From Methanosarcinales archaeon (GTDB lineage Archaea; Halobacteriota; UBA148; JAUWXC01), in NCBI GenBank assembly GCA_026016205.1, contig CP061209.1, positions 33,685-97,684 of the forward strand: a DNA stretch of 64,000 nt. Direction: 5' to 3'. The notes below the pieces were generated by a model. It made no database searches and was not told the origin of the DNA. It was given only the letters and a program-made list of their open reading frames with translations. Positions 15,723-33,585 of the stretch are shown here, one piece after another (within the stretch, counting starts at the first letter, position 1; every line of letters starts with the position of its first letter). A program made the position numbers and the translations under genes.

Positions 15723-15777
15723 ACATCTGCATGTTTGCAAAGGGCTTGCTGGTGCATATTACTGGTGGAGAAGAAAT

Positions 15778-16146: not shown

Positions 16147-16173
16147 TATTCATAGCTATCCGCCCCCCAGCAA

Positions 16174-18055: not shown

Positions 18056-19032
18056 TTCCTCTGCCTCCCTGTAATAAATCCTTTCCAGAAGTAAAATACA
18101 TCTAAGAAGTAATCTAAAAGTTTTACTGGAGGGACCAACATAAAAACTTTCAGGTCTTTCATAACTTTGAAAGCCCTTACGGCATTTCCAAATACTATTG
18201 TAGCGATATAAAGCGCTCCAAATATGCGAATGAAATTTGAGGGAATGAATAGTACGATGACTGCAAGTGTTTTGAAGATTTGGTTATTTATATCCCACGC
18301 CCTGAATCTATACTTTCTGAATAAAACGCCTTGTCCTTCCGCCAAGCGAGGTCTGTATTCAAATAATATCCTTGAAAGTTTAGCCACACGAGAAGAATGC
18401 AGATGATACACGGGCGTCGGAACCGACACCATCTTATATCCTACTTTAAACAATTTTATGCTCAAATCCACATCTTCACAAGCCGCTCTATATGTCTCTC
18501 CATCTAACCCCCAAAACTTTAAAAAAGTATCTTTCTTGAAAATAACGTTTTTGAGATCACTATATCCGTCTGTGCAAATTTCCACAGAGTTTTCATAATC
18601 TTCTTTCAAATCCCACGAGAATAAAGCTTTTTCCCAGAATCCAAACTTCTCGTAAATTTCTTTTGACAATATCACAGGTGAAGAGACTAACGCAACTTCG
18701 TCATCCTTGAGATAAGGGACTAATTTCTTGAACCATTCATTTTCAGCCAATAATATATCCTCATGAATCACGGAAACAATATCATTCTTTGAGGCTTTTA
18801 CACCCTTGTTTACCGAGCGAGCAAATCCCAGATTCGTATCATTGTTTATTATCTTTATGGGATATTGCTGCACAACTTTTAATGTGTCATCAATGGAGCA
18901 ATCATTAACAACAATTATGTCAAGTTCTCCATCATATTTCTGGTTCAAGATGGATTCTATCGTTTTGCCTATTGTCTTCTCGCCATTATATGTCGGTATT
19001 ACTACGCTTATTCCCGGATACTTATCACTCAT
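18052..19032 (-). CDS. GT2 glycosyltransferase
   Basis: 'ISVVIPTYNGEKTIGKTIESILNQKYDGELDIIVVNDCSIDDT' and 'SVIHEDILL' are present. Start taken at MSDKYPG, abutting the rfbB stop. Confidence 0.8.
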   Translation of the reverse strand: MSDKYPGISVVIPTYNGEKTIGKTIESILNQKYDGELDIIVVNDCSIDDTLKVVQQYPIKIINNDTNLGFARSVNKGVKASKNDIVSVIHEDILLAENEWFKKLVPYLKDDEVALVSSPVILSKEIYEKFGFWEKALFSWDLKEDYENSVEICTDGYSDLKNVIFKKDTFLKFWGLDGETYRAACEDVDLSIKLFKVGYKMVSVPTPVYHLHSSRVAKLSRILFEYRPRLAEGQGVLFRKYRFRAWDINNQIFKTLAVIVLFIPSNFIRIFGALYIATIVFGNAVRAFKVMKDLKVFMLVPPVKLLDYFLDVFYFWKGFITGRQRK

Positions 19033-19979
19033 TACTGCAATAATGGCTCCCACCACCATCTATTTTCAACATACCATTTAATAGTTCTCTTAATCCCTTC
19101 TTCAAACCGTACTTTGGGTTTCCAACCAAGCTGTTTTATCTTCCCCGTATCCAAAGAGTATCTAAAATCATGCCCCGGCCTATCCGTTACAAATTCTATC
19201 AAGCTCTCAGGTTTGTTTAACTCCTTGAGAATCATATTTACAATTTCTATGTTTTGTTTTTCATTTCCACTTGCGATATTATAAATTTCTCCTATTTTTC
19301 CTTTCCTAAATACCACATCTATTGCCTCGCAATTATCCAAAACGTAAATCCAATCTCTAACATTTCCCCCTTCTCCATAGATAGGGAGAGGTTTGTCATG
19401 TAAAGCATTTAAAATGAGAACGGGAATTAGCTTCTCTGGATATTGGTAAGGACCAAAATTGTTTGAACTACGAGTTATTAATACTGGCAAGCCATAAGTC
19501 TTGTAGTAGGCTTTAACTAACAAATCCGCTCCCGCTTTGCTAGCTGAGTAAGGAGAAGACGGGTCTAACATATCTTCTTCTTTAAAAGAGCCTTTTTCTA
19601 TCGAACCATATATTTCATCCGTGCTTATTTGGATGTATTTTCCAATGTTATGCTTCCTTGCATACTCTAAGAGATTATAGGTTCCAAGAACGTCTGTTTT
19701 TACAAATATGCCTGCATCTATTATCGAACGGTCAACATGCGTCTCTGCTGCAAAGTTGAATATAACATCGCATTCTTTTACTTTTTCAACATCTTTCCTG
19801 TCGCAAATATCTCCTTTGATGAACTTTATTTTATCCATCACGTCTTGTAAATTCTCTATTCTGCCAGCATAAGTCAGTTTATCTAAGACTACAATCTCTT
19901 CATCAGGATACTTCTTTAGCATATATCGAACAAAATTGCACCCTATAAAGCCCGCACCACCTGTTATTAATATTTTCAT
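19032..19979 (-). CDS. rfbB: dTDP-glucose 4,6-dehydratase
   Basis: '[19 protein letters not shown]', 'FAAETHVDRSI', 'ISTDEIYG' and 'YSASKAGADLLVKAY' (the YxxxK catalytic motif) match the RmlB signature order. Confidence 0.85.
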   Translation of the reverse strand: MKILITGGAGFIGCNFVRYMLKKYPDEEIVVLDKLTYAGRIENLQDVMDKIKFIKGDICDRKDVEKVKECDVIFNFAAETHVDRSIIDAGIFVKTDVLGTYNLLEYARKHNIGKYIQISTDEIYGSIEKGSFKEEDMLDPSSPYSASKAGADLLVKAYYKTYGLPVLITRSSNNFGPYQYPEKLIPVLILNALHDKPLPIYGEGGNVRDWIYVLDNCEAIDVVFRKGKIGEIYNIASGNEKQNIEIVNMILKELNKPESLIEFVTDRPGHDFRYSLDTGKIKQLGWKPKVRFEEGIKRTIKWYVENRWWWEPLLQ

Positions 19980-19980
19980 T

Positions 19981-21252
19981 TCAGATCACATTGGGTTCTG
20001 GAATTGGTAGAATGAATTTCCCACCTCTTTTCATATATTCACTCTCTTTTTGTAAAATCTCATCGGCATAGTTCCAAGCCAAGAGGAGAGAGTAATCGGG
20101 GGGGTCTTCATGAAACTTTTCCTCAGGAAATACAGGAATGTGCATACCTGGTGTGTAGCGCCCTTGCTTGAAAGGTGTTGTATCACTAATATAGTCCAAA
20201 ATATCTGTGCCAATTTTGCAGTAGTTTAATAAAGTATTTCCCTTAGCTGTAGCTCCATAACCTGTTATTCTAGCTCCTTCCTTTTTCAGTATTTTCAAGA
20301 TACATACTAACTTTTCTTTCACTAAAGCCACTTTTTCAGCAAATTCCAGATACGTCTTAAGAGAGCAGAGTCCAGATTTACGTTCTCTAAACAGCAACTC
20401 TGTTACAGCTGGAGACTGTTGCTTCGCTGATTTTTGTACAAATATGCGAATTGATCCCCCATGAACAGGGATCTGTTTTAAATCTACAATCTCCATACCA
20501 AATTTTCGAAACAGGTAAACCAAAGGATGAAGGGCAAAATAAGAGAGATGTTCATGGTATATTGTATCGAACTCTGTATTGTTTAATAAATTTAGGAGAT
20601 AGGGAACCTCAATAATAAAAACCCCGTTTTTCGAAAGTAAATGATTTATACCGTGTAAGAAGCTTTCCAAGTTGTCTACATGGGCGAAAACGTTGGTCGC
20701 CAGAATAACGTTCGCATGACCATATTTTTCGCAAATCTTCATAGCACATTCCTCGCTGAAAAAGTCATTTATAGCCTGAATGCCGTTTGCCTCTGCCAAT
20801 TTTGCAATATTAGAGGCAGGCTCGATACCTAATGTCTGCAAACCGACCTTTGAAAAGCACTGGAGCAAGGTTCCATCATTGCTCCCGATGTCTACTACCA
20901 AACTGTTTTTGTTTGGTCTGAAATTCTGGATTACATCTTTTGCGAGTCCAGCAAAATGAGTCTGCATCGGTTTAGAAGCGCCAGTTAAATATGTATATTT
21001 TTCGAACATGACTTTAGGGGAGACTACATCTAAGAGTTGAACGAGGTAACAATTACTACAAAAGTACATGTCGAGTGGGTAAACATATTCAATATCATCC
21101 AATTGATTTCGCTTTAAAAATCTATTAGGTAGGGGCATATTGCCCAGTGAGAGAAATTTATGCAGATTTTTGCATCCACAGACTCGGCATTTATTATTGG
21201 ATACAAAATCGCCAAGTTTTGTTTTGCTATTATCGGGGTTTATTCCAGCCAT
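19981..21252 (-). CDS. NDP-hexose C-methyltransferase family protein (TylCIII-like) with an N-terminal zinc ribbon
   Basis: 'CRVCGC...' and 'CSNCYLVQL' form a Cys4 N-terminal domain. 'VVDIGSNDGTLLQCF' is the SAM-binding motif. 'ATNVFAHVDNLESFLHGINHLLSKNGVFIIEVPY' and the C-terminal 'GYGATAKGNTLLNYC' are as in sugar C3/C5-methyltransferases. Confidence 0.7.
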   Translation of the reverse strand: MAGINPDNSKTKLGDFVSNNKCRVCGCKNLHKFLSLGNMPLPNRFLKRNQLDDIEYVYPLDMYFCSNCYLVQLLDVVSPKVMFEKYTYLTGASKPMQTHFAGLAKDVIQNFRPNKNSLVVDIGSNDGTLLQCFSKVGLQTLGIEPASNIAKLAEANGIQAINDFFSEECAMKICEKYGHANVILATNVFAHVDNLESFLHGINHLLSKNGVFIIEVPYLLNLLNNTEFDTIYHEHLSYFALHPLVYLFRKFGMEIVDLKQIPVHGGSIRIFVQKSAKQQSPAVTELLFRERKSGLCSLKTYLEFAEKVALVKEKLVCILKILKKEGARITGYGATAKGNTLLNYCKIGTDILDYISDTTPFKQGRYTPGMHIPVFPEEKFHEDPPDYSLLLAWNYADEILQKESEYMKRGGKFILPIPEPNVI

Positions 21253-21715
21253 ATGGTTCACCACTTCTTGGATCAATTATTGAAGAATCATCCCACAGCC
21301 TTCTTTCTTCGTCAGGATCTTCATAATCGTAAAGCTTTGTTACTAGGTAAAGGACTAAAGAAGGCTCGTTTCCTATGCATTTTGCCCCATGCCAGTAAAA
21401 ACCAGGAATTCTAACAATTTGCGGTTTTTCGCTAGTTATAACAATTTCGTCTAATTGCCCTTTTGTTTCAGAAGTCTTCCTATCATCATATGCACAAACC
21501 ATAACAGCCCCTTTTACAACACAGATATAGTCAACTTGACCTCTTGAATGGCGATGCCATGCCCTGATTATTCCAGGATAGCTCATTGAAAGATTTACTT
21601 GCGCAATATTATCTCCTTTAAGAAAGTCGCCCCAATCTACTCTGAACAGTTCTGCAAAAAACCCCCGTTCATCAGGAATCTTTTTTATATCGTAAACTTT
21701 CACTCCTGGTAACAT
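21230..21715 (-). CDS. dTDP-4-dehydrorhamnose 3,5-epimerase-like cupin (RmlC family)
   Basis: 'DERGFFAELFR' and 'QVNLSMSYPGIIRAWHRH' carry the RmlC-type His. The protein is a short cupin of 161 aa. Confidence 0.7.
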   Translation of the reverse strand: MLPGVKVYDIKKIPDERGFFAELFRVDWGDFLKGDNIAQVNLSMSYPGIIRAWHRHSRGQVDYICVVKGAVMVCAYDDRKTSETKGQLDEIVITSEKPQIVRIPGFYWHGAKCIGNEPSLVLYLVTKLYDYEDPDEERRLWDDSSIIDPRSGEPYGWNKPR

Positions 21716-21731
21716 GAGGATACACCTTCTT

Positions 21732-22592
21732 TTACCCGATAATTTTGTAATACCCTTTCTCTCTCAAGTAATCTGCTAAAGCATCTTCCCAACTTCTCAT
21801 TCTGAGCCCAAAGTTATTTAATTTTGTACTTTCAAGCGCAGAGAACTTCGGTCTTCTCGCTTTTCTGTTAAGCTCATCAGATTTTATCGGCAAAAGTTTT
21901 GCATCGATATCTAAGAATTCAAAAATTTTTTTGGCAAATTCAAACCAACTACAGTACCCTTGATTAGTGACATGATAGATACCATATGGAAGTTCTCTCT
22001 CAATTATATTTTTTATTATATTGGCAGCGTCTTTTGTATAAGTTGGAGACATTACAACATCGTCTACTACTTTAATTATTTCATTATTACTCGCTTTCTT
22101 AATCATCCACTCAACGAAATTTCCACCCTTTCCTCTTGCACCCTTACTCCCAAAGAGACTCGCAGATCGGATAATATAGAATCTCCTGCAATAGTTTCTT
22201 GTAAGGATTTCCCCTGCATATTTACTTAATCCGTAAATGTTAATCGGATTTATATTGTCATTTTCATGATAAGGTTCTTCCTTTTCCCCATCGAATATAA
22301 AATCCGTGCTTATATAAACATTTTTCATTCGTTTTTCATTGCATACCAATGCCACATTTCTCGCCCCGATTGCATTTACCATAAAAGCCTCCTCCGGATG
22401 ATCTTCGCTATCATCCACTCTTACATACGCAGCACAATTTATCACGGCATCAACACCTTTTAAAACTCTTCTACAACTAGTAATATCTTTTACCTCTATC
22501 TCATCATGTGAGAGGGGTAAAGCTTCCTCTCCAAATACATCTAAAATATCACTCCCAAGCTGACCAGTTGACCCAATAATAGCCACTTTCAT
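21732..22592 (-). CDS. rfbD: dTDP-4-dehydrorhamnose reductase
   Basis: 'MKVAIIGSTGQLGSD', 'NCAAYVRVDDSE', 'YGLSKYAGE' (YxxxK) and 'SPTYTKDAA' are present, as in RmlD. Confidence 0.8.
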   Translation of the reverse strand: MKVAIIGSTGQLGSDILDVFGEEALPLSHDEIEVKDITSCRRVLKGVDAVINCAAYVRVDDSEDHPEEAFMVNAIGARNVALVCNEKRMKNVYISTDFIFDGEKEEPYHENDNINPINIYGLSKYAGEILTRNYCRRFYIIRSASLFGSKGARGKGGNFVEWMIKKASNNEIIKVVDDVVMSPTYTKDAANIIKNIIERELPYGIYHVTNQGYCSWFEFAKKIFEFLDIDAKLLPIKSDELNRKARRPKFSALESTKLNNFGLRMRSWEDALADYLREKGYYKIIG

Positions 22593-22629
22593 TTTTAACC
22601 CTAATTTTTATGAGTTTGTTTTGACTCTA

Positions 22630-23694
22630 TTATAATTCTACCTGAGAACTATCTCCAATGACAAGTCTATGACCCTTTGGTAATTGGTCACGATCTGAGA
22701 TCTTTACTTCCTTCCCAATTAAGCTATCAACGATCTTCTTATTACAATTAATCTTTGTACCGTCCATTATAATGGAGGATTCTATCTCGCCATTTATGAC
22801 TTCACAATTGTCTCCTATGCTTGTATATGGGCCGATATAAGTATTTGGGCCTATCTTACAACTTTTTCCTATTATAACTGGGCCTTTAATCACAGATCCA
22901 CTTTTTATAACTGTATTCTCCCCAATACTAACCCTTCCCTTGATTATTACCTTATCTTCCAGAACTCCCCTATTATATGGCTCTAGTTCATCCAAAACGA
23001 GTTGATTTGCTTCTATAATATCTTCTGGTTTTCCAGTATCCTTCCACCATCCAGTAACTATTTCTGAATTCACTTTAAGATTATTATCAATCAAATACTG
23101 TATAGCATCTGTTATCTCAAGCTCATCTCTCCAAGAGGGTTTTATGTTTTTAACAGCTTCAAATATCGGAGGTCTGAACATATATATCCCAACTAAAACA
23201 AGATCAGAAGGCGGTTTTTTGGGCTTTTCTATTAATCTTTTAATAGAGCCATCTTCATTAAGCTCTGCACATCCAAACAGGCCTGGATTCTCATAGTGAG
23301 TTAAAAGTATGCTGGCGTCCATATCGCCTTTTTCGAAGCGTTTAACATGTCGTATTATTCCACCTTTTATTATGTTATCACCCAAGTACACAACGAATGG
23401 CTTATCGCCTATAAAATCCTCAGAGATTTTTACAGCATGTGCAATACCTAATGGTGCTTCTTGTTCTATGAAAGATATCTCTGCATCAAAATAGGCATTA
23501 TTTACAGCTTCCACGACCCTATCTTTATTTGGTCCAACTATGATACCAATGTCTTTTATTCCGGCTTCTATAACGTCTTCTATTGCATAGAACAGAATTG
23601 GTTTGTTTGCAACCGGTATCAATTGCTTTTGCTGCGAATATGTGATTGGGCGAAGTCTTACTCCATGCCCCCCTGATAGTATTAGTCCCTTCAT
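22630..23694 (-). CDS. Glucose-1-phosphate thymidylyltransferase-like nucleotidyltransferase (long form with a left-handed beta-helix C-terminus)
   Basis: 'MKGLILSGGHGVRLRPITYSQQKQLIPVANKP' is the G-x-G-x-R-L signature. The C-terminal hexapeptide repeats read 'IGENTVIKSGSVIKGPVIIGKSCKIGPNTYIGPYTSIGDNCEV'. Confidence 0.8.
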   Translation of the reverse strand: MKGLILSGGHGVRLRPITYSQQKQLIPVANKPILFYAIEDVIEAGIKDIGIIVGPNKDRVVEAVNNAYFDAEISFIEQEAPLGIAHAVKISEDFIGDKPFVVYLGDNIIKGGIIRHVKRFEKGDMDASILLTHYENPGLFGCAELNEDGSIKRLIEKPKKPPSDLVLVGIYMFRPPIFEAVKNIKPSWRDELEITDAIQYLIDNNLKVNSEIVTGWWKDTGKPEDIIEANQLVLDELEPYNRGVLEDKVIIKGRVSIGENTVIKSGSVIKGPVIIGKSCKIGPNTYIGPYTSIGDNCEVINGEIESSIIMDGTKINCNKKIVDSLIGKEVKISDRDQLPKGHRLVIGDSSQVEL

Positions 23695-23724
23695 AGAGAT
23701 CACTTTAATTCTTGATGCTATTCT

Positions 23725-24249
23725 TTAAAAATATTTTCCCTCTCCATTTTCCAACACCCAAACTATGTGAGGCTTCAAATTACCACCTAAAAAGTGCTCT
23801 GCAAATTCAGGCCTCAAATTCACTATCTTTTCAAGCAAGCCACACCACTTGTTCTTGAGTATTATTCGCCTGCTGATAATCTTAAATCTTGCCTTGCTGT
23901 AGTAACTAAATCCAGAATTTACCGTGAAATAGTTCATCGTTGCGATTGTGAAGAAATTCTTATGCGTTGGGTCTCTAAAAGCATCCAATCCCTTAACATG
24001 TGGCACTTCAATTATCACTCTCCCTCCCCATTTTAATACACGATTAATTTCTTCCATCGCCTTAATTAAATCGTCAACGTGTTCTAAGAGTTGATAACAC
24101 AGAATTTTGTCTACACTTTGGTCTTTGAATGGCAAATACTGTATATCAGCAATAACATCTGCTCCTTTTGTTCTTCTGATGTCCACACCTACGGAATTTG
24201 GTATTTTTCCCGGTCCGCAGCCGATGTCAAGGGTTATCATTTCAATCAT
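23725..24249 (-). CDS. Class I SAM-dependent methyltransferase
   Basis: 'LDIGCGPGKIPNSVGVD' and 'LLEHVDDLIKAMEEINRVLKWGGRVIIEVPH' are present. It is a paralogue of the 15186-15722 product, with a similar motif layout. Confidence 0.75.
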   Translation of the reverse strand: MIEMITLDIGCGPGKIPNSVGVDIRRTKGADVIADIQYLPFKDQSVDKILCYQLLEHVDDLIKAMEEINRVLKWGGRVIIEVPHVKGLDAFRDPTHKNFFTIATMNYFTVNSGFSYYSKARFKIISRRIILKNKWCGLLEKIVNLRPEFAEHFLGGNLKPHIVWVLENGEGKYF

Positions 24250-25306
24250 TTATGACATCCCACCACTTCTTTGCAATCACTTCAACATCATATCGACTTA
24301 CTGCCTTCTCACGACCTTTCCCCCCCATCTTTTTCCTTAATTTTCCATCATTGACGAGAACTTTTAATTTATTTAATAAAATATTTTTATCTTTCCGTGG
24401 CATGATAAATCCATCCACCCCATCATTTATTATATCTCTAGGACCAACACTGTCAACTGAAATAACTGGTAAGCCGCAGGCCATAGCCTCGATCAATACT
24501 ATCCCAAACAACTCTCTTGAAGGAAGTACAAAGATGTCTGCCTTGCTATATATCTTCGCAAGTTCTTCTCTATCACTAATAAACCCAAAATGCTTCACTG
24601 GATATTTTCTCTCCATTTCCTCAACATTTTTAGCCAGTTTGCCTTTGCCAACAAACCAGAACTCAACTTCTCTTGGATCAAAATTTTTTGCTATATCCAG
24701 CAAATCCAACACACCCTTTGACTCAACCATGTATCCAACAAATAGTATCTTTACTCGTTCATCCTCATCAACTTCATTAAGTGTCGGTTTAAAGATTCTT
24801 GTATCAACTGGATGTGGTATGTGGTATCCTTTTGCACCGAGTCGCTCAACTTCTTCGTTTGCACGTTTTGTCACTGAAATAGCTTTTACCCCATCCAAAA
24901 ATCGCTCCCACATAGTTATTTGATTGGAAAAATACGGTTTTTTTACATACTTTTCCCCATTCCAATATGGCCATGAATTGTGGTAGATTATGTTGTTGTG
25001 TTTTTTTAGATGTAATAAATATGGTATGCTCATACTATATGGTGCAACGCCCACAATGATATTTAGATCTGAGCATAGTGGTAGGTTAATTATACCATGT
25101 ACATATCTCAACGCATCTAGTGAGTTCTTGATAAATGTCTTATGTACGATTCCTTCACCAACATGACGTGGGACGGAATATAGAATTCGATTTATATTGT
25201 TTATGTATCCTTTTTCTTTTAAATGATATACTGGATCGTCATGTCTTCTAGTACCACATTGCCGTAATATAGTAATGTCCACCATTTTTACAGTCCTCTT
25301 AATCAT
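24242..25306 (-). CDS. GT4-family glycosyltransferase
   Basis: 'FVGYMVESKGVLDLLDIA' and 'PSRELFGIVLIEAMACGLPVISVDSVGPRDIINDGVDGFI' are present. Confidence 0.8.
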   Translation of the reverse strand: MIKRTVKMVDITILRQCGTRRHDDPVYHLKEKGYINNINRILYSVPRHVGEGIVHKTFIKNSLDALRYVHGIINLPLCSDLNIIVGVAPYSMSIPYLLHLKKHNNIIYHNSWPYWNGEKYVKKPYFSNQITMWERFLDGVKAISVTKRANEEVERLGAKGYHIPHPVDTRIFKPTLNEVDEDERVKILFVGYMVESKGVLDLLDIAKNFDPREVEFWFVGKGKLAKNVEEMERKYPVKHFGFISDREELAKIYSKADIFVLPSRELFGIVLIEAMACGLPVISVDSVGPRDIINDGVDGFIMPRKDKNILLNKLKVLVNDGKLRKKMGGKGREKAVSRYDVEVIAKKWWDVIND

Positions 25307-25310
25307 CTAC

Positions 25311-26747
25311 CTACGGTTTCACTTTAAAAATTCCCTTAAACATATTTATATCCTCTTTGGATAGGCTTCCAACTAGATAGATTATAGAAAAATAGACCAT
25401 GGCTGCTAAAATGACTACTAATATCACATTGAAGTCTCTTAACATGTAAACACAGCCCCCCATCAATAAGGCGGCAACTATAGGTTTCTTGCAAATTCTA
25501 TATAATGGTAATGTGCCAACTGGTATCGAAACGGAATTGAAATAAAAAAGAAACATAATGCCTTCTGTGACGACCGTTGCAATACTTGCTCCAATTAGAC
25601 TTAGGTACGGTATCAAAATGATATTCAATGCAATGTTAACCCCTGCTCCAATTGTAGCCACTTTCGCCATTACTATTTGTTTTTCAATAGCACCTAAGAC
25701 TGTCTTAAAGACAGCATTAAAGGAGAGGATTAAGAAAGCCCATATCAGTATCTGAAGAGCAAGTATGGAGTTTGAGAACTCAATCGTGTAGATACCCCAG
25801 ATGATTTTGTCTGCCAGAAGGGTTGTACCTATTGTGATTGGTAACACTAGAATGAATAGATACTTGAACGATTTTTCATATGCGGTATATAATGCCGTTT
25901 TCGAGGTTTTGAAGAACACGGATACCACCGGGAATACAGAAGTCATGAAGGCCGCTGGGATGAAGACCAGTGCAGCAATTAAGCTATATGAAGCATTGTA
26001 CCATCCTGTAACCGCATCCCCCTTCATCATAGAGAGCATGACAACGTCTATGTAAAAATAAATCGGAGCAAAAATACCGTAAATCCAGAATGGAATAGAT
26101 TGCTTCAATAAACTTTTCCAGAAATCGATATCTATTTCGAATTTTGGTCGAGGAAATTTCTTGTAAATGATTAAAATGCAACAAAATACACTAAAAACGC
26201 TCCCCACTAAGAACGCAGAAACCACTTCAATCAAACCATAGCCTGCAAGCAAGACAGAGATGCCCAAGGAAACAACTACCACTTTTTCAATGATGCGCAC
26301 AAATGCGTTGTATTCCATTTTTTCGAAAGCATTAAATAAAAATTTGAAGGAGTTGGAAAATGCACCCAGCGTTAAACTGAGGCCAATGACATATACTGCT
26401 AAGGTCGTTATTGGTGGATAAGACATTATATTAATCATAATGAAAATTAATCCAAACATCAATATGGACAAAATCAGTTTGATTGGAATGAGGTTACCCA
26501 AGTACTTGCTGGCTTTTGATTTATCTCTGGCAACATCCCGTACCGCTAACGTCCCAAGCCCAAGATCACCCATAATAAGGAACAGGCTGCAAAAAGCGAA
26601 TGCGAAAGAGTACCTGCCAAAACCAACATCACCTAGATATCTCGCGATGTAAACGACGAGCATCAAGGATAGAACCCTAGTGATGATATCGGCAAGAGTT
26701 AGTACTAATGTGTTCTTTGCAATCCTTCTTACAGTGCTCAATGTCAT
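25311..26747 (-). CDS. Wzx-like oligosaccharide flippase (MOP / polysaccharide biosynthesis protein family)
   Basis: 478 aa with about 12-14 hydrophobic helices. The N-terminal 'RIAKNTLVLTLADIITRVLSLMLVVYIARYLG...GFGRYSFAF' is characteristic of the Wzx/RfbX family. Confidence 0.75.
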   Translation of the reverse strand: MTLSTVRRIAKNTLVLTLADIITRVLSLMLVVYIARYLGDVGFGRYSFAFAFCSLFLIMGDLGLGTLAVRDVARDKSKASKYLGNLIPIKLILSILMFGLIFIMINIMSYPPITTLAVYVIGLSLTLGAFSNSFKFLFNAFEKMEYNAFVRIIEKVVVVSLGISVLLAGYGLIEVVSAFLVGSVFSVFCCILIIYKKFPRPKFEIDIDFWKSLLKQSIPFWIYGIFAPIYFYIDVVMLSMMKGDAVTGWYNASYSLIAALVFIPAAFMTSVFPVVSVFFKTSKTALYTAYEKSFKYLFILVLPITIGTTLLADKIIWGIYTIEFSNSILALQILIWAFLILSFNAVFKTVLGAIEKQIVMAKVATIGAGVNIALNIILIPYLSLIGASIATVVTEGIMFLFYFNSVSIPVGTLPLYRICKKPIVAALLMGGCVYMLRDFNVILVVILAAMVYFSIIYLVGSLSKEDINMFKGIFKVKP

Positions 26748-26779
26748 TCACCACGATCCGACAATTTTTGGGGAAAGAT

Positions 26780-27889
26780 TTACTGCTCCACTAGTCCCTT
26801 GCTTACGAGCTCCCTATGTGCCTCTTCAAACCTATCAACAGCCTCTTGGGATTCGCCCCATTCGACCAACTCTTTCATACCCTGCTCAAAACTGATTTGG
26901 GGTTTAAATCCTAACTTTTTAATCTTGGATACATCAGCATAACAGTGTCGTATGTCTCCAGAACGATACTTGTTGACTATTTCTGGCTTTAGTGCTTTGC
27001 CATATAATCTAATCAAGGTGTCGGCGATGCTCAATATAGATATCGGAGATCCTGTCCCAACATTAAACGACCCATAATTCATCCTAGAATTCTCCATGGC
27101 GAGTAGATTCGCTTGAGCTATGTCCTTCACGCTGACAAAATCCCTCGTTTGTAAACCATCTTCAAAGATTAATGGAGGTTTATCGTTTTTGATTCTAGAA
27201 GAAAAGATGGCACACACTCCGGTGTAAGGATTTGACAAACTCTGTCTAGGTCCATAGACATTGAAATATCGTAGCGCAACTGTTGGAATTCCATATGTTC
27301 GTCCTGTCAATAGACACATTTCTTCCTGATCTTTTTTGGTGATGGCGTAGATCGATGTCGGCTGCAGGGGCTTGTTTTCATCAGTAGACACTGGTCTTAC
27401 GATTTTTCCACAGTTTGGACATATCATCTCCCATTCTCTGTTTTTTAGTTGTTCTTCTGGTCTTAACTTTGGATAAACGATGCCACAATCCTCGCATTCA
27501 TATTTGCCCTCGCCGTAGATGCTCATGGATGATGCCACGATTAACTTTTTTACATCATGCTCCTCGTTAGCTAAAATATCCAATAATTTTGCAGTTCCTA
27601 ATGTGTTCACGTCGACATATTTCTCAATCTGATACATCGATTGTCCGACGCCAACCATGGCTGCCTGATGAAAGATTACATCCGCATCTTCTACAACTTC
27701 TTTGAGATTGTTCCTGTCTCTAATATCCCCCCTAACGAAATCTGCACTTTGATTCAAGTAATCCGGCTGTTTTGCATGAACCTGTGGCTCGAGGTAATCG
27801 TACATCGTTACATCATGATCTTTTTCTATAAGGGCGTCGACTAGATGTGAGCCTATGAATCCTACGCCGCCGGTTACTAATATCTTCAT
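26780..27889 (-). CDS. NAD-dependent sugar epimerase/dehydratase (extended SDR) with an inserted zinc ribbon
   Basis: Start taken at MKILVTGGVGFIGSHLV. The YxxxK motif is at 'SIYAITK'. Between the Ser strand ('ASSMSIYG') and YxxxK lies 'KYECEDCGIVYPKLRPEEQLKNREWEMICPNCGKIV' (CxxC...CxxC). Confidence 0.8.
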   Translation of the reverse strand: MKILVTGGVGFIGSHLVDALIEKDHDVTMYDYLEPQVHAKQPDYLNQSADFVRGDIRDRNNLKEVVEDADVIFHQAAMVGVGQSMYQIEKYVDVNTLGTAKLLDILANEEHDVKKLIVASSMSIYGEGKYECEDCGIVYPKLRPEEQLKNREWEMICPNCGKIVRPVSTDENKPLQPTSIYAITKKDQEEMCLLTGRTYGIPTVALRYFNVYGPRQSLSNPYTGVCAIFSSRIKNDKPPLIFEDGLQTRDFVSVKDIAQANLLAMENSRMNYGSFNVGTGSPISILSIADTLIRLYGKALKPEIVNKYRSGDIRHCYADVSKIKKLGFKPQISFEQGMKELVEWGESQEAVDRFEEAHRELVSKGLVEQ

Positions 27890-27970
27890 TTTATTATCTC
27901 TCCAAACCACTCTATCGTCTTATTCAAGCCTGCGCCTAAATTAACCTTTGGCTCCCAATTCAAAATCTCT
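27886..27970 (-). pseudogene. 3'-terminal remnant of an SDR (UXS-like) gene
   Basis: The reverse-strand frame reads ...[31 protein letters not shown]. Compare the intact UXS C-terminus [21 protein letters not shown] at 29668. The remnant stop overlaps the ATG of the downstream SDR gene (ATGA). There is no upstream body: an in-frame stop lies about 45 codons up. Confidence 0.7.
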
Positions 27971-28040
27971 CCGTTTTCTCCAGAATTTATTGTTACTTCG
28001 TAGAAAATTTTATAAGCATAATACCTTAATATGGTATAAT

Positions 28041-28832
28041 GTGAGCAAAAATATCTATTTAAGCAAACAAGAACAGATGATATTCAACGTGATATCGTCC
28101 ATTGACATAGTTCATACTGACGATATTGGTGGGCTTTTTCCAAATTTAAAACTCCATCAAATAAACAAAATTTGCTCCAACCTCTCTTCAAAAGGCTATC
28201 TTTACAGGCTGAAAAAGGGAGTCTACCTGATTCAAAAGAAGCCATCCACTGTTCCTGTAATAAAAAATCCTTACAACATTGCTTTAGCATTATTTAACGG
28301 TTATATCGGTTTTTCTTCGGCACTTAGGATTTATGATCTCTTAGATTATGAACCCTTCACTATATTCATCGTAACCCCAAACAAATCCATGGAGAAAAGG
28401 ATAGGAGAGTACACGTTCAAATCGGTGGCGATGGGCAAGAAAGCCACAGGAATAACATTCTACAAAGGCATTTATATTTCCACTTTAGAGAAGACATTCT
28501 TTGATTGCTTTTATAAACCGCAGTATGGAGGAGGTTATTCGACGATAACCAAAGCGTTATATGATGCAGATCTGGATTGGGACGAATTTACAAAATATTT
28601 TAAACTCGCATCCGACTCTTTGTGCCAGAGAACCGGATACGTTTTGGAGCTGTTAAGGAAAGAGACCGGCAAAAAACCTTCAAAAGATGTTTTACATTAC
28701 TTCAGAAAAAGGGTTAAAAACAACACAAAATTATTGCCCTCTGGACAGGCAAGAGGAGAATACATAAAAGAATGGATGGTATTGGACAACCTTGGAAAAG
28801 AAAACATATTATCATGGTGGTATCATGGCTGA
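28041..28832 (+). CDS. abiEi: AbiEi-family antitoxin / transcriptional regulator (type IV TA)
   Basis: 'LSKQEQMIFNVISS...IVHTDDI' and 'LSSKGYLYRLKKGVYLI' form an N-terminal wHTH. 'ALALFNGYIGFSSALRIYDL' is as in COG5340/AbiEi proteins. It is paired with a downstream AbiEii gene with an 8-nt overlap. The GTG start at 28041 was chosen because the upstream part of the ORF covers the SDR remnant. Confidence 0.7.
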   Translation: MSKNIYLSKQEQMIFNVISSIDIVHTDDIGGLFPNLKLHQINKICSNLSSKGYLYRLKKGVYLIQKKPSTVPVIKNPYNIALALFNGYIGFSSALRIYDLLDYEPFTIFIVTPNKSMEKRIGEYTFKSVAMGKKATGITFYKGIYISTLEKTFFDCFYKPQYGGGYSTITKALYDADLDWDEFTKYFKLASDSLCQRTGYVLELLRKETGKKPSKDVLHYFRKRVKNNTKLLPSGQARGEYIKEWMVLDNLGKENILSWWYHG

Positions 28833-29613
28833 TCTAGAGATTTTAAGGCATATATCTGCAAAGACGGGTCTCGGTCTAAAGTATCTGTCAAAGGATGAGA
28901 AGATTTCAATCGTTCTGGAACAACTAGGGGATTTGTTCCCGGAGGTGATTTTAAAAGGGGGAACCGCTTTAAACAGGGTGTATCTGGCGAAATTGGGGGT
29001 TAGCAGATTTTCAGAAGATATAGACTTGGATTTCATCTCAAATAAGAATTTGAATGAAAAAATCTCTGCAATTAAAGAGAGGGCTGTGGGAATAAAAGGG
29101 TTTGATATAGAGGGTCCAAGAATTCTCCATAGAACCTTGAGGTTCGATTGTTACTATATGAATGAATTTGATGAAAGAGACCGGATAATGATAGAGTTCT
29201 ATCTCACCAAGACCAAATCCCTGAAGACAGAAGATATCTTGGTGAAATCCCCATTTATAGAGACGCATCCAGTTATCTTCAAGGTTTATTCTCTGGAAGA
29301 TTTAATGGCACGAAAGTTCATCGCTCTGTATAACAGGATGGAAAGAAAAGACATCTATGATATGTTTTACTGCTTGGATTTGAATTTTGATACGAAGGAT
29401 TTGCTCAAAGCGTTAAATCTCATGCTGGATTTTTACAAGGTAAATCGCCAGGGTTTTCTGAATGAACTTTTGCTGAGATTAAAAGAAGCAAGAAAAAATG
29501 CTTATTATATAGGAAATTCGACCAATCACTTCATACCCAGAAACATAAGGCCGGATTGGAGAGTCTTTATCGATACGTTAATGCTAAAAACTGAGAGGGT
29601 ACTCAAAGAGTAG
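28825..29613 (+). CDS. abiEii: AbiEii/AbiGii-family nucleotidyltransferase toxin (DUF1814)
   Basis: 'ILKGGTALNRVYL...RFSEDIDLDF' is the GG/DxD nucleotidyltransferase motif of AbiEii. 'LEDLMARKFIALYNRMERKDIYD' is also present. Confidence 0.8.
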   Translation: MADLEILRHISAKTGLGLKYLSKDEKISIVLEQLGDLFPEVILKGGTALNRVYLAKLGVSRFSEDIDLDFISNKNLNEKISAIKERAVGIKGFDIEGPRILHRTLRFDCYYMNEFDERDRIMIEFYLTKTKSLKTEDILVKSPFIETHPVIFKVYSLEDLMARKFIALYNRMERKDIYDMFYCLDLNFDTKDLLKALNLMLDFYKVNRQGFLNELLLRLKEARKNAYYIGNSTNHFIPRNIRPDWRVFIDTLMLKTERVLKE

Positions 29614-29667
29614 CAACTCTATTATTATTTAAAATATCTAAATTTTTATAGACTTCTTATTCATAAA

Positions 29668-30588
29668 TCACTTTATCGTCTTATTCAATCCTGCATCTAA
29701 ATCAACCTTTGGCTCCCAATTCAGGATTTCTTTTGCCTTAAAAATATCCGGGCATCTGCGCTTGGGGTCATCTTGTGGTAGTGCTTTGAAGGCTATTTCT
29801 GAATCAGAGTTAATGAGTTTCTTGACCTTTTCGGCTAACTCGCGTATTGTTACTTCATCTGGATTACCCAGATTGATGACCTCGCCCTCTGCACCGTTAG
29901 AGAACATTGCTCTGCATATGCCATCTACCATGTCAGAGATGTAACAAAAACTTCTCGTTTGAGAGCCATCGCCGTAGACCGTAATCGGCTCATTGGCTAG
30001 GGCTTGAGTGATGAAATTAGGGATAGCCCTACCATCCTCTTTTCTCATCCTCGGCCCATAGGTGTTGAATATTCTTGCAATTCTCACATCCAAGCCATGC
30101 TTGCGATGATATGCCATCGTCAACGCCTCCGCGAACCGTTTCGCCTCGTCATAGCAACTTCTTGGACCAATTGGATTAACGTTCCCCCAGTAGGACTCTG
30201 GTTGTGGATGGATAGTTGGATCGCCATAAACCTCAGACGATGATGCCAGCAGAAATGTGGCATCTTTTTCTTTAGCCAGTTCCAAAGCGTTGTGCGTTCC
30301 AGATGAGCCAGTTAGCAACGTCTCTACTGGCAATCGCTGATAATCCACTGGGCTGGCAGGGCTTGCCAGGTGAAAGAGGTAATCGATTTCCTCCTTGGTC
30401 GTCAATGGCTTGATTATGTCGTGTTGCAGATAGGTGAAATTTTTGTTGTTTGACAAGTGGGCGATGTTTTCGCTCGTTCCCGTGCACAAATTGTCCAGAC
30501 AGATGACCCTGTGGCCATCATTTAGCAATTTTTCACACAGATGTGAGCCTATGAATCCTGCACCGCCCGTAACCATTATTTTAGCCAT
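29668..30588 (-). CDS. UDP-glucuronate decarboxylase (UDP-xylose synthase)-like SDR
   Basis: '[42 protein letters not shown]', '[11 protein letters not shown]', 'SSSEVYGDP' and '[11 protein letters not shown]' (YxxxK) follow the UXS-type pattern. A Ugd gene lies at 33590-34873. Confidence 0.75.
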
Positions 30589-30627
30589 TGTTTGCCGCCT
30601 TTGGAAATTTGGGATAAATTGGGGATA

Positions 30628-31134
30628 TCATTTGAGAACGTAGTAAGCACCTTTTTTCTCTATCAAGTTAAGTTTAACTAGTTTGCTCAAGTCCAATCTG
30701 GCAGTTTCGCTGGAAACATTTAGGAACAATGCTTTTAAGTCAGCATTTGTGATTTTCTTATTTCTTTTAAGAAACTCGATGGCTTTAATCTGCCTTTCAT
30801 TTAATCCCAAATCTCTTAAGTATTCTTCAGTTAATTTTCCAACAAATGTTACAGCCAAATGCCCCTCTCCTTTTGACATCTTCATTTTGTCTCGCCAAAA
30901 CTCGCCAAAACTCGCCAAAACATAGTGAGTCCCTGGACCCCTGCCCCTCTTTTCAATCAATTTCTTATTAACTAAACCATTTAATTCTCTGTTAGCGGTT
31001 CTCTCAGAGACGCTATAAAGTTTCTCGTATTCTGCCCTTGTAATTTTGCCATATTTTTCAATGTGCTTAATAGATTTCTCCTGTCCTTCGCCATTGGTAA
31101 TTATAGATAAGATTGCATCGCCCAAATTATTCAT
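30628..31134 (-). CDS. Protein with two tandem winged-helix DNA-binding domains
   Basis: Two copies of the pattern 'I(T)RAEYEKL..VSERTANRELNGLVNKKLIEKRGRGPGTHYVL' and 'ITNADLKALFLNVSSETARLDLSKLVKLNLIEKKGAYYVLK'. The junction is encoded by a 10-bp x3 tandem repeat. Confidence 0.55.
   Translation of the reverse strand: MNNLGDAILSIITNGEGQEKSIKHIEKYGKITRAEYEKLYSVSERTANRELNGLVNKKLIEKRGRGPGTHYVLASFGEFWRDKMKMSKGEGHLAVTFVGKLTEEYLRDLGLNERQIKAIEFLKRNKKITNADLKALFLNVSSETARLDLSKLVKLNLIEKKGAYYVLK
30891..30920. repeat. Perfect tandem repeat, 3 x 10 bp (ctcgccaaaa)
   Basis: Read directly: ctcgccaaaa ctcgccaaaa ctcgccaaaa. It lies inside the wHTH gene and encodes VLASFGEFWR on the - strand. Confidence 0.95.
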
Positions 31135-31211
31135 ATCTTCCCCACTACTAATTTATCTACTACATGGCCTTCAATAAATCCTGCACCGCCCGTTACGAGT
31201 GTCGTTTTCAT
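31131..31211 (-). pseudogene. 5'-terminal remnant (26 codons) of an NAD-dependent epimerase/dehydratase gene
   Basis: The reverse strand reads ATG AAA ACG ... = [26 protein letters not shown]. This is a Rossmann GxxGxxG N-terminus that terminates after 26 aa. Its stop overlaps the ATG of the wHTH gene. Confidence 0.65.
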
Positions 31212-31338
31212 CAGGTGGCTATATCCCATTATTCGTATATTAAACCAACTTCCTCGCAATGTGGATACTTATTCAAGTAAGACTTAAATAAGATAACCTT
31301 CTTACTTTGTAAAGGTGATAAGGTTGGCTACAGTTAAG

Positions 31339-31587
31339 ATGTCTTCCAGGGGGCAGGTAGTGATACCAAAGCAACTACGAGACGATCTTGGCCTGGTTGA
31401 AGGTTGCAAATTAAAGGTGTTTCGAGAAGGAAAAAAGATGGTTATGATAACAGAGCCCGAAAGCAAACCAGAAGAATTATTTGTAGCCGCCAAGAAGGAT
31501 GCCACAAAAGAGGCCATGGAAGTCTCACATGAAGTCGATGAGACAAAACTGAGAAAACTCCTGAAAGAAGTCGGTGTTGAAGCGTGA
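31339..31587 (+). CDS. vapB: AbrB/SpoVT-family antitoxin (VapB-like)
   Basis: 'MSSRGQVVIPKQLRDDLGLVEGCKLKVF' is the swapped-hairpin AbrB/MazE motif. It overlaps the downstream PIN gene by 4 nt. Confidence 0.75.
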   Translation: MSSRGQVVIPKQLRDDLGLVEGCKLKVFREGKKMVMITEPESKPEELFVAAKKDATKEAMEVSHEVDETKLRKLLKEVGVEA

Positions 31588-32042
31588 GCAAGGTCGTATT
31601 GGATGCCGGGGTATGGGTGGAGTACATCAACAAAAACGGCAGATACCATGCCCAAGCTAAAACGATTGTCGACCGAATAAATAATGATGCAATAGTTGCA
31701 GCAGTCAGTCCAATAACCCTAAGCGAGATTTATTATGTTTCTGAGAGGGTCTACAAAGAAGTATTTGGGGCAAGCTTGGCAAAACAAAAAGCTGAAAAGC
31801 TTTATAATTTCATCTACTATCACCCGAACACAGAAGTTGTGTCCATCGACCATAAACTGGGTCTGAGGGCTGGAGAGATAAAATCAGAATATAACATCGC
31901 CATATCTGACTGCTACTCACTTGCTTTATCTGAAAAAGGTGGTGTACCAGTAGTATTCAGGCATGTGGAAAATGAGATGATGCCACGTTTGAAAGATATT
32001 AAAAAAGACTTCAATATAATATTCCTTGAAGAATACGTTTAG
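31584..32042 (+). CDS. vapC: PIN-domain toxin (VapC-like)
   Basis: GTG start. 'VVLDAGVWVEYI' carries the first acidic residue, 'ITLSEIYYV' follows, and 'ISDCYSLALSEKGGVPVV' carries a later acidic residue. The size (152 aa) and the pairing with an AbrB antitoxin fit VapC. Confidence 0.7.
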   Translation: MSKVVLDAGVWVEYINKNGRYHAQAKTIVDRINNDAIVAAVSPITLSEIYYVSERVYKEVFGASLAKQKAEKLYNFIYYHPNTEVVSIDHKLGLRAGEIKSEYNIAISDCYSLALSEKGGVPVVFRHVENEMMPRLKDIKKDFNIIFLEEYV

Positions 32043-32136
32043 GGTAGCATGATGAAGTAAAAATTTTAAATATAAAAAATAATAGATGCAGATTTTTAGG
32101 ATACTTTATAGAAAATGAAATCAACGTGGGTGAAAC

Positions 32137-32559
32137 ATGAGGAAAATTAACATATTCGACAAATCAATTCCAATGATAGCGATCATAGCAATGGTACTCA
32201 TGGTAGGTATGGCCGGAGCTATAACTTATCACTACTCCCTAATCGGGGGCACAGTCAAGGTCGAAGAGCCTGTGATAACTACGTCTCCACAGGATAGTTA
32301 CACAATAACCATGGATGCATCTTCCATCGAGACAAAGAGCATAACGATTACCAGCACCTTGGATAAAACCGCGTATATAACTACTCTTCCTGGAGATGAG
32401 ACAACGCTGAAGGAATGGGGGAAAGATTTGATCGTTTATCCTAACAATGAGTCCGTAACACTAACCGCTGGCGTGGGGTACAGGGTGACGATCTTCCATT
32501 ATGCAAGTGAAGATTTGCCAGCAGGGGAGTATCATATTAGAGTAGAGGTATCATATTAG
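32137..32559 (+). CDS. Membrane-anchored or secreted hypothetical protein (beta-rich)
   Basis: The N-terminal hydrophobic segment is 'IPMIAIIAMVLMVGMAGAI', followed by a Thr/Ser-rich sequence predicted to be beta-rich. No motif was recognised. Confidence 0.45.
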   Translation: MRKINIFDKSIPMIAIIAMVLMVGMAGAITYHYSLIGGTVKVEEPVITTSPQDSYTITMDASSIETKSITITSTLDKTAYITTLPGDETTLKEWGKDLIVYPNNESVTLTAGVGYRVTIFHYASEDLPAGEYHIRVEVSY

Positions 32560-32589
32560 GGCAGTGCCGCTTAAACCAAACGCGAGGTG

Positions 32590-33585
32590 CTAAAACTCAA
32601 TCGTCGACGAATCGCCTATATTGAGCGATTTTGATTTGCCGGTGAGATTGACCTTATCGCCGATGATGCTCGATTTGAGGCTCATGTTGACGATATCCGC
32701 TCCTGCACCGATGATGCTGTCCTCGATAATCGAATTTTTGATGACGGTGTTATCGGCGACCGACACGTTAGGGCCAATAACTGAGTTGATGAGCTTCGCA
32801 CTAGGACCGATGGCAATTGGTTGTATTATGATAGAGTTGGTAGATTTGACGTCATTCTCGCCTTTTTCTGCCAATAGCACTCTATTTGCTTCCAGTAACG
32901 TATCAGCCCTGCCGCAGTCATACCAATCATGCACGGGAAACGTTTTCAGCTCTGCATCAGCATCCACCATGAGCTGAAGCGCATCCGTGAGTTGATATTC
33001 GCCTTTTTTGCTGCCTTTGGTCAGTTTGCTCAGCGATTCAAATAAAAGCGGCATATCCTCTATGATGTAGATACCTGCAATCGCGCGATTTGAGGTCGAG
33101 CTGGATGGCTTTTCAATGAGTTTGGTGATTGTACCATCTTTCACGTATACAATGCCGTAGTGTTCTGGCGCATCCACGGTCTTAACTCCGATGGAACCGG
33201 CACATTCGCCATTGCTCCTGTGCCTGGCCAGAAACTCGCTATACCCTGCCTTAAAGATCATGTCGCCCAGTGCTATCATCACCGGCGCATCTCCGACAAC
33301 ATCCTTCGTGACGTATATCGCATGCCCCAAGCCCAACGGCTCATCCTGGGTGATGTATGTGATTTTGTCGAATTTGCCGGCATAATTTGCGTCTATATAC
33401 GAAATCGTCTTGCTTTTCATCTGCCCGACGACGATGACAACCTCTTCTGGATGGACGTCGATTAATCGGTCAAGAATGTGCCCTATAATCGGCTTGCCAG
33501 CTACGAACACCATCGGTTTTGGCTTAGTGTGCGTATGGGGATACAGTCTCTTGCCAACGCCCGCCGCAGGTATGATTACTTTCAT
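32590..33585 (-). CDS. Sugar-1-phosphate nucleotidyltransferase with a hexapeptide-repeat C-terminus
   Basis: Start taken at MKVIIPAAGVGKRLYPHTHTKPKPMV (the GxGxRL signature). The C-terminal left-handed beta-helix repeats read 'IGPNVSVADNTVIKNSIIEDSIIGAGADI'. Confidence 0.8.
   Translation of the reverse strand: MKVIIPAAGVGKRLYPHTHTKPKPMVFVAGKPIIGHILDRLIDVHPEEVVIVVGQMKSKTISYIDANYAGKFDKITYITQDEPLGLGHAIYVTKDVVGDAPVMIALGDMIFKAGYSEFLARHRSNGECAGSIGVKTVDAPEHYGIVYVKDGTITKLIEKPSSSTSNRAIAGIYIIEDMPLLFESLSKLTKGSKKGEYQLTDALQLMVDADAELKTFPVHDWYDCGRADTLLEANRVLLAEKGENDVKSTNSIIIQPIAIGPSAKLINSVIGPNVSVADNTVIKNSIIEDSIIGAGADIVNMSLKSSIIGDKVNLTGKSKSLNIGDSSTIEF

Follow-up and report, generated by a model that had tools for sequence, protein, structure and literature searches.

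Probable insertion of an AbiE toxin-antitoxin cassette into the 3' end of an archaeal UDP-glucuronate decarboxylase gene with long target duplication

Background

A 64,000-nucleotide stretch of the genome of a Methanosarcinales archaeon (contig CP061209.1, positions 33,685 to 97,684; hereafter the window, whose numbering is used unless another sequence is named) carries an AbiEi/AbiEii gene pair beside the gene for UDP-glucuronate decarboxylase (UXS). Our finding is that this AbiE cassette probably inserted into the 3' end of the UXS gene, with long target duplication, in an ancestor whose locus resembled the metagenome contig L119. A gene fragment at the far end of the locus, the 5' stub, would be separate and older.

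The window is part of a single-contig archaeal genome of 987 kb and 46.2% G+C, in which the AbiE/UXS locus lies at 61-65 kb. The phylum includes, among others, a genome with a protein labelled Methanocella by NCBI. An original prediction, made from the sequence of the window, held that the middle of one gene of the short-chain dehydrogenase/reductase (SDR) family had been replaced by a single 3.2-kb cassette, and that the ends of that gene remained as a 5' stub and a 3' stub. Both stubs lie where they had been placed, including the ATGA overlap of the 3' stub with the next SDR gene. Between them are the AbiEi/AbiEii pair, the UXS gene and a two-domain winged helix-turn-helix (wHTH) open reading frame (ORF). 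We compared the locus with genomes (labelled G and a number), metagenome loci or contigs (L and a number) and Logan contigs of four sequencing runs (X1-X4), of which X1 is the source run. G004, G005, G007, G010 and G012 are relatives of the same order, and G001-G003 are genomes of the same genus.

AbiE systems are reportedly type IV toxin-antitoxin and abortive-infection systems, with AbiEi as antitoxin and repressor and AbiEii as a nucleotidyltransferase. Criteria for insertion with long target duplication were set out for restriction-modification units by Furuta, Abe & Kobayashi 2010 (PMC2853133), in whose screen no archaeal case survived. How toxin-antitoxin and other small defence modules enter chromosomes without a mobility gene is poorly explained. 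The present locus is a worked example: the site can be seen both empty and occupied, and the cassette also occurs elsewhere with long target duplications.

Results

The empty site and the insert

The uninterrupted state, which the original prediction had suggested looking for in relatives, was found in L119, a Joint Genome Institute metagenome contig. There a regulator gene, a second wHTH gene, UXS and a zinc-ribbon SDR gene follow one another, with no AbiE and no 3' stub; the UXS gene encodes 313 amino acids (ending TIKWFREASK) and is coupled by ATGA directly to the SDR gene. In nucleotide alignments, window 31089-29664 corresponds to L119 877-2312 (88.5% identity) and window 27962-26785 to L119 2253-3430 (86.8%). 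Because the two alignments overlap on L119, its positions 2253-2312 are matched twice, by window 29723-29664 and by 27962-27903, and window 29663-27971 is extra; a segment duplicated in the window is thus present once in the empty relative. The same-genus genomes G001-G003 were rejected as a source of the empty site, as they have no UXS, zinc-ribbon SDR gene or AbiE. The features at the insertion site are as follows.

26780..27889, minus strand: zinc-ribbon extended-SDR gene, 369 amino acids, downstream partner of UXS (Pfam Epimerase, E 3.5e-53)
27886..27970, minus strand: 3' stub, the displaced original UXS 3' end (repeat copy 27904-27970 plus its own tail, GEIIK and stop)
27971..27984, no strand: 14-nt filler at the left junction, without homology to UXS or to the cassette in any other context
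27985..29601, plus strand: AbiEi/AbiEii cassette, 1,617 bp (delimited by the ends of nucleotide homology; PADLOC and Pfam AbiE matches)
28001-28062: predicted promoter/operator of the cassette, non-coding and kept even in distant relatives
28077-28832, plus strand: AbiEi (PADLOC AbiEi, E 3.2e-62; Pfam AbiEi_1 and AbiEi_4 weak, below cut-off)
28828-29613, plus strand: AbiEii (PF08843, E 1.4e-26; extends four codons beyond the shared part of the cassette)
29618..29663, minus strand: UXS tail (last codons MNKKSIKI and stop) and 20-nt spacer, absent from L119, homologous to G010 and probably arrived with the cassette
29638..30588, minus strand: resident UXS gene (in-frame TGA at 29670-29668; upstream repeat copy 29665-29731)

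The insert, 29663-27971, is therefore 1.69 kb long and is made up of G010-type UXS tail and spacer (46 nt), the 1,617-bp cassette and the 14-nt filler, with about 60-67 nt of the UXS 3' end duplicated around it. It is below 20 kb, holds a complete module, and has AbiEi and AbiEii as its only long ORFs. These limits do away with the single 3.2-kb cassette of the original prediction, the wHTH gene, UXS and SDR gene being contiguous in L119 without AbiE.

The repeat that the original prediction had aligned by hand (54/62 between 27908-27969 and 29669-29730) was reproduced and survives a proper alignment; it extends to 58/67 (87%) between 27904-27970 and 29665-29731. The second-best ungapped 67-nt match in the whole 987-kb genome reaches only 38/67. 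Direct repeats of more than 30 bp thus flank the insert, as described by Furuta et al. 2010.

The coding part of the 3' stub (27970-27886 on the minus strand) spans 27 residues, and its stop overlaps the ATG of the SDR gene (ATGA). It aligns to L119 from 2253 onward, unbroken into the SDR gene, and keeps a Shine-Dalgarno-like GGAGAG and the start overlap for that gene. The L119 orthologue of the zinc-ribbon SDR protein is the closest relative found, at 90% protein identity. These observations support the earlier view of the 3' stub as a displaced gene end still coupled to the next SDR gene, and likewise the claim that an AbiE addiction or defence module entered a glycan locus by recombination in the conserved 3' end of a sugar gene.

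Chimeric assembly of the metagenome-derived genome could also yield a structure bounded by repeats, and repeats of 67 nt are able to mislead short-read assemblers. We regard this as extremely improbable, since an independent Logan assembly of the source run gave a 76-kb contig with 0 differences across window 26000-32600, and the junction of stub and cassette is also present in another sample (X3, 2 differences in 162 nt).

The UXS gene is resident and its end lies beyond a late nonsense codon

The original prediction took the UXS gene between the stubs to be intact and to have been brought by the cassette. Likeness to characterised UXS enzymes extends over the full length of the protein, whose best solved-structure match is to chains of human UDP-glucuronate decarboxylase (UXS1; E 4e-111, residues 3-305), and Ugd sits upstream in the locus. 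The description as intact holds in that sense but fails at the C-terminus, where an in-frame TGA (29670-29668) falls 10 codons before the natural stop at 29640-29638 (tail ending NKTIKWFMNKKSIKI), leaving the UXS of this strain 10 residues short. The same codon is TGG in contigs of three other runs, X2-X4 (29668 T>C). It follows that AbiE did not truncate UXS; a late nonsense codon did. The UXS tail of G010, ending TIEWYMNKKSIKI, is the same as the read-through tail of the window, and nucleotide homology to G010 continues over the 20-nt spacer and ends exactly at 29618 (88.5% over 122 nt).

The idea that UXS is foreign to the locus was not borne out. In G004, G005, G007, G010 and G012 the gene order is NT-cupin, Ugd, a nucleotidyltransferase (NTase), variable small genes and UXS. 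The window UXS is 80% identical to that of G004, 78% to that of G010 and 72-73% to family f3; the corresponding values are 76, 82 and 70-72% for the NTase and 76, 69 and 60% for Ugd. The G+C content of UXS is 45.3%, close to that of the genome, as compared with 36.5% for AbiE and 36.3% for the wHTH ORF. Conserved order, identities in step with the neighbours and genome-like G+C together make UXS the resident gene of its slot.

The replacement originally proposed, in which one ancestral SDR gene reached from stub to stub and its middle was exchanged at once for a 3.2-kb block of wHTH gene, foreign UXS and AbiE, is in our judgement very improbable. The stubs do have the right order and orientation, and both look derived from UXS or SDR genes. 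Against this, L119 has the inner genes, wHTH and UXS, without AbiE or the 3' stub; UXS agrees with its neighbours in synteny and identity; G004 and G010 also have the 5' stub, there ahead of other cassettes and without any AbiE; the wHTH ORF is a truncated regulator gene; and the AbiE cassette travels by itself, over 1.6 kb.

The AbiE cassette as a discrete unit

AbiEi, starting at 28077 (or at a GTG at 28041) and not within the 3' stub, lies directly upstream of AbiEii, a DUF1814 nucleotidyltransferase, and the two ORFs overlap at 28828-28832 as is characteristic of an AbiE gene pair. AbiEii carries the GGT...DIDLD nucleotidyltransferase signature. By analogy with the family, AbiEii is expected to be a nucleotidyltransferase toxin restrained by AbiEi, which would also repress the conserved promoter; both the toxicity of AbiEii and the repressor role of AbiEi are presumed here from family membership.

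Homology to the cassette spans 27985-29601 in L121 (93%) and 27985-29599 in G008 (89%), and in L122 (96.6%) it begins at the same left boundary. Matches over roughly 28000-29600 occur in about 60 metagenome loci, at 73-81% in the nearer ones and about 64-66% in the more distant. Across relatives the homology starts at 27985-28002 and ends at 29590-29603. With the same sharp ends the cassette occurs in four other contexts, two of them with long target duplications: in L122 it lies behind a DUF4143 ATPase gene, and in L121 and G008 it follows a surface-protein gene, the last 85-100 nt of which recur on the far side. Judged from these homology limits, the cassette is a discrete mobile unit that moves alone over 1.6 kb.

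The contigs of X3 and X4 show a target duplication of 49 nt at a site close by: position 27986 continues via CCCC into 29618-29666, which thereby occurs a second time, and the next 30 nt are the same as the opening bases of the ATPase gene located after UXS in G010. X4 and the window, compared on short Logan contigs, agree closely across the cassette as far as about 29699, beyond which identity falls. From this drop it follows that some 80 nt at the 3' end of UXS (29618-29699) move together with the cassette.

Several further likenesses were set aside. A joint in X3 that seems to lead back had suggested a circular or tandem cassette; this was rejected, since the contig exits the cassette at 29618 into G010-type DNA. 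The SDR gene beside an AbiE homologue in G031 (the AbiEi homologue being labelled Methanocella by NCBI) is not UXS, and the adjacency was treated as coincidence. The likeness of 27981-28008 to 32089-32116 was rejected as a second cassette end, the latter being the conserved promoter of a 140-amino-acid ORF.

The duplicated surface-protein gene 3' ends, each with its terminator, are at 8790-8908 and 10675-10780 in L121 and at 7100-7232 and 8960-9000 in L040 (G008). The cassette of the G008 lineage has about 150 nt of extra DNA on its right side. Two copies of a distant AbiE cassette occur 3.66 kb apart on one metagenome contig (L093, 4683-6280 and 8347-9944).

Proposed history of the insertion

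We propose that the ancestral locus resembled L119, with the regulator gene, a second wHTH gene and UXS, the last coupled by ATGA to the zinc-ribbon SDR gene. The 1.6-kb AbiE cassette, without a recombinase of its own, would have entered the 3' end of UXS, bringing along UXS tail and spacer (about 46 nt) from an earlier insertion site in a G010-type UXS and duplicating about 60-67 nt of the target. DNA of a related strain may have paired homologously in the conserved 3' coding part of UXS while its other side was joined illegitimately, with 14 nt of filler; a single crossover of a circular cassette bearing a short copy of the UXS end would be an equivalent route. UXS would in this way have gained a new tail, and its old end (EILNW...TIEWFGEIIK and stop) would have been left as a non-coding stub that may still give a ribosome-binding context and a start overlap to the SDR gene.

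The absence of a mobility gene agrees with this history. No recombinase gene lies in the insert or near the locus: the integrase or recombinase whose search the original prediction had recommended was not found there, and the two tyrosine recombinases of the genome are at 194 kb and 819 kb. Other mobile-element genes are likewise lacking in the insert, the nearest tyrosine recombinase being more than 125 kb off; transposase families were not searched for genome-wide.

A number of points weigh against our reading. A simple recent duplication would be expected to leave near-identical repeats, and these are 87% identical. The 3' stub differs at two positions, to N and G, where all four UXS genes compared have VDLD. 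Its identity is 58/70 to the resident UXS, 55/70 to the G010 UXS and 54/70 to the G004 UXS, pairwise counts being used because the 67-nt segment is too short for a tree. Taken together, the 87% identity and the near-equal distance of the stub from the three genes imply that the event is old, or that the stub or one repeat copy derives from a donor of another lineage. X3 also holds a second form, which has the junction of stub and cassette seen in the window and different DNA beyond 27904, and the structures of X3 and X4 are drawn from short Logan contigs. No circular or excised form of the cassette was seen. L119 could be a revertant, produced by deletion through the repeats, instead of the ancestral state. 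As to the direction of the event, the SDR gene and everything downstream of it are low in G+C (36.8-41.9%). Finally, we infer the mechanism, host homologous recombination with an illegitimate join, from the junctions.

Several of these points suit the reverse polarity, in which UXS and AbiE were already side by side, as in X3 and X4, and the stub, the zinc-ribbon SDR gene and an AT-rich glycan block were imported later. The imported DNA would have ended 85 nt inside a donor UXS of a coupled UXS-SDR pair and been joined illegitimately to the left end of the cassette. The SDR gene (41.9% G+C), the flippase gene (38.3%) and the glycan block at 14137-26747 (36.8%) are all below the genome average; the SDR protein is about as close (72-76%) to proteins labelled Methanoperedens, ANME-2 or Archaeoglobales as to those of the same order; and X3 and X4 have the cassette by UXS without the SDR gene, X3 having in addition the stub with another downstream flank. 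We nevertheless find this polarity unlikely. The wHTH gene, UXS and SDR gene are contiguous in L119, with similar identity on both sides of the insert (88.5% and 86.8%), from which the simplest history is one in which both flanks were already together. Moreover, L119 lacks the UXS tail found beside the cassette, and this tail is of G010/X4 type, as would fit its having been imported together with the cassette.

A trans-acting enzyme, either a site-specific recombinase or some cassette-mobilising protein, might instead recognise SDR gene ends and cassette ends. The cassette ends 27985 and 29601 are reproducible and sharp in several contexts, the 5' stubs of G004, of G010 (both) and of L070 break right after GGATTT(ATH), and stubs punctuate cassette arrays. 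However, the duplicated stretches differ in length (49, about 67 and about 85-100 nt) and in position, being coding DNA in some cases and spacer in others; the targets (UXS end, UXS tail, surface-protein gene end) are not related to one another; the junctions showed neither conserved inverted repeats nor a common core; the 5' junctions are scattered from codon 12 to codon 79; and there is no recombinase in or near the insert. We consider such an enzyme quite unlikely.

The 5' side of the locus

Under the insertion history that we prefer, the 5' side of the locus has an origin of its own. Its features are the following.

30628..31134, minus strand: wHTH ORF, 168 amino acids, 3' remnant of a regulator gene fused to a second wHTH ORF
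31131..31248, minus strand: 5' stub, 26 codons (31211-31131) with an upstream promoter-like region (31212-31248)
31315..32042, plus strand: VapB (AbrB/MazE-fold)/VapC (PIN) pair, a further cassette upstream of the 5' stub (Pfam)

The original prediction counted the wHTH gene as a DNA-binding protein carried by the cassette; it turned out to be a fragment of a regulator gene. It consists of the last ~85 amino acids of a roughly 460-amino-acid regulator of AlbA_2/HATPase_c_4 type joined to the second wHTH ORF, and L119 has the long form. Homology of the window to the L119 regulator starts at 31089 (nucleotide) or 31125 (protein). A search for wHTH homologues in species genomes gave only two partial matches, which place the domain in long AlbA_2/HATPase_c_4 regulators. 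No remaining parts of the regulator were found elsewhere in the genome, and no full-length relative of the L119 regulator adjoins UXS in 40 related genomes.

The TGA of the 5' stub overlaps the ATG of the wHTH ORF, and the stub is fused directly to the regulator remnant. Its good match to the UXS start covers just 23 nt (21/23). Over 38 nt from the ATG it shares 82% identity with the starts (MKTVLVTGG) of working UXS genes in family f3, and codons 13-26 could not be assigned to a source gene, their identity to every candidate being 50-67%. Window 31248-31176 matches G004 over 73 nt (82%, E 6e-15), of which 37 nt precede the ATG. The promoter-like region and the first 12 codons are common to stubs in G004 and G010, where they stand ahead of other toxin-antitoxin cassettes: in G004 a DUF2283-type pair comes after the stub, whose sequence is MKTMLITGGAGF, and in G010 the same stub precedes a DUF2283-type pair while a second stub precedes an AF2212-like gene and then UXS. 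AbiE is not present in either genome. The reading of the two stubs as ends of one replaced gene thus finds no support, the 5' stub being shared with genomes that have no AbiE and the inner genes occurring without the 3' stub in L119, a contig that ends before the place of the 5' stub. An SDR start in G002 (79% match) was set aside as a relative of the 5' stub and put down to ordinary SDR conservation.

The 5' stub, common to related genomes, would accordingly represent the promoter and opening codons of a gene of SDR/UXS type heading the operon; in those genomes small toxin-antitoxin cassettes may repeatedly have been placed behind it. In the genome of the window, a deletion may have fused this stub to the last part of the regulator gene.

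Stubs and cassettes in relatives

SDR 5' stubs adjoin PIN, HepT/MNT, DUF2283 and AF2212-like cassettes in L059, L063/L069, L070, L114, G004 and G010; the L-series loci with recurring stubs had been fetched solely for carrying AbiE. In G004, other toxin-antitoxin pairs stand on either side of UXS, with a PIN gene and a DUF2283 pair upstream and a second PIN pair downstream; between this second pair and UXS is a putative nucleotidyltransferase/HEPN pair, recognised from its sequence. The order in L070 is stub, HepT/MNT, AbiE and further pairs, with the next SDR gene about 8 kb on. L063 and L069 have a PIN pair, a stub, a PIN pair and an SDR gene; L059 has a 79-codon SDR fragment, a PIN pair and a stub; and L114 has a stub and then one further ORF. 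Repeats of 53-54 nt at 91-93% identity, beginning at the ATG, occur in L059, L063 and L069.

Three copies of UXS 3'-end sequence are present in G010 (L052 5355-5393, 6584-6611 and 7914-8035). A 2.5-kb block there, bounded on each side by a copy of the UXS tail with its spacer (39 nt at 95% and beyond), contains an apparently frameshifted DUF4143 ATPase gene, a 237-amino-acid ORF and a 91-amino-acid ORF, with a 28-nt UXS fragment between these cargo genes. Going by their arrangement, the G010 repeats look like nested insertions at the same hot spot.

Discussion

The closest known parallel comes from restriction-modification gene complexes that insert with long target duplication (Nobusato et al. 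2000, Gene 259:99; PMC2853133). Both concern a small self-stabilising unit without transposase or integrase, flanked by direct repeats of more than 30 bp that are variable in length, single-copy in an empty-site relative and often overlap the 3' end of a gene, and in both the G+C content of the insert is below the genome average. The present case differs in that its cargo is a type IV toxin-antitoxin pair and not R and M genes, its host is an archaeon, its repeats are 87% identical, and the cassette carried a piece of its previous target. Long target duplication is hereby extended from bacterial restriction-modification genes to an archaeal toxin-antitoxin pair. No toxin-antitoxin case was found in the portions of the literature examined, where the term was met merely in reference lists.

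The cassette resembles AbiE systems in its two overlapping genes, its AbiEi and AbiEii profiles, its GGT...DIDLD motif and a conserved upstream non-coding stretch that is consistent with autoregulation; the archaeal version differs in being known from genes alone.

Homology-facilitated illegitimate recombination has reportedly been described in transformable bacteria. The present junctions are similar in that one end is anchored (the UXS 3' end), the other is joined without homology, there are a few filler bases and a local duplication results. That process was described experimentally in bacteria, whereas here it is deduced from the anatomy of archaeal junctions.

Integron arrays, and islands that restore the 3' end of a tRNA or protein gene, are also comparable. 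They share small promoter-less or self-regulated cassettes behind one promoter, with short repeats between them, and in the islands the target gene stays intact since a new end is supplied. The present locus differs in having no integrase, no attC-like structure and no fixed crossover, its repeats being the host gene's own end. The borders are accordingly copies of a host gene end with variable break points and not attC-type sites.

Our results suggest that conserved sugar-gene ends are recombination hot spots that exchange selfish modules and glycan gene blocks. A further idea, which we put forward only tentatively as a possibility less probable than its alternatives, is that the ends of SDR sugar-nucleotide genes (the Rossmann-motif start and the UXS tail) act as recombinase-free landing pads, with cassettes bearing a short end copy looping out and re-entering by host homologous recombination. 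If so, the stub-punctuated cassette arrays of archaeal glycan loci would be an integron-like platform without an integrase, and the stubs would have a second use, as portable homology arms in the exchange of adjacent glycan genes.

Where surface-glycan loci contain short gene-end stubs, these are insertion scars and not remnants of lost biosynthetic genes, which matters for annotation and for the inference of glycan pathways. The practical effect here is small: the UXS tail is changed and slightly shorter, and the SDR gene is no longer coupled to UXS, a 1.7-kb antisense cassette lying between them.

Additional observations

The VapB/VapC segment (31278-32058) is an insertion relative to G010, between the 140-amino-acid ORF and the stub. 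A homologue of the pair (79-81%) occurs elsewhere on the same G010 contig, and 27 nt upstream of it are conserved at 96%.

Proteins labelled Methanosarcinales are likewise 72-76% identical to the zinc-ribbon SDR protein. These and the Methanoperedens, ANME-2 and Archaeoglobales proteins are thus as near to it as the relatives of the same order, which hints, as far as these comparisons go, at horizontal spread of the gene. The start of UXS (30539-30582) and that of the zinc-ribbon SDR gene (27843-27886) are alike over 44 nt (84%), including 21 identical bases (GGATTCATAGGCTCACATCT..), and the two proteins are overall merely about 25-34% identical. Since the starts are so alike despite this low protein identity, exchange of sequence between SDR gene starts is suggested.

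A 10-bp repeat (ggcgagtttt) occurs three times at the joint of the two wHTH domains (window 30850-30925; also L119 1040-1110). Just downstream of it, L119 is 2 nt shorter and has two wHTH ORFs, which are fused in the window; the X2 and X3 contigs have a 1-nt difference nearby, at 30866. In the spacer just upstream of the UXS start, an 11-nt indel (AAATTTGGGAT, 30604-30611) separates X2 and X3 from the window and looks like one short tandem repeat unit gained or lost.

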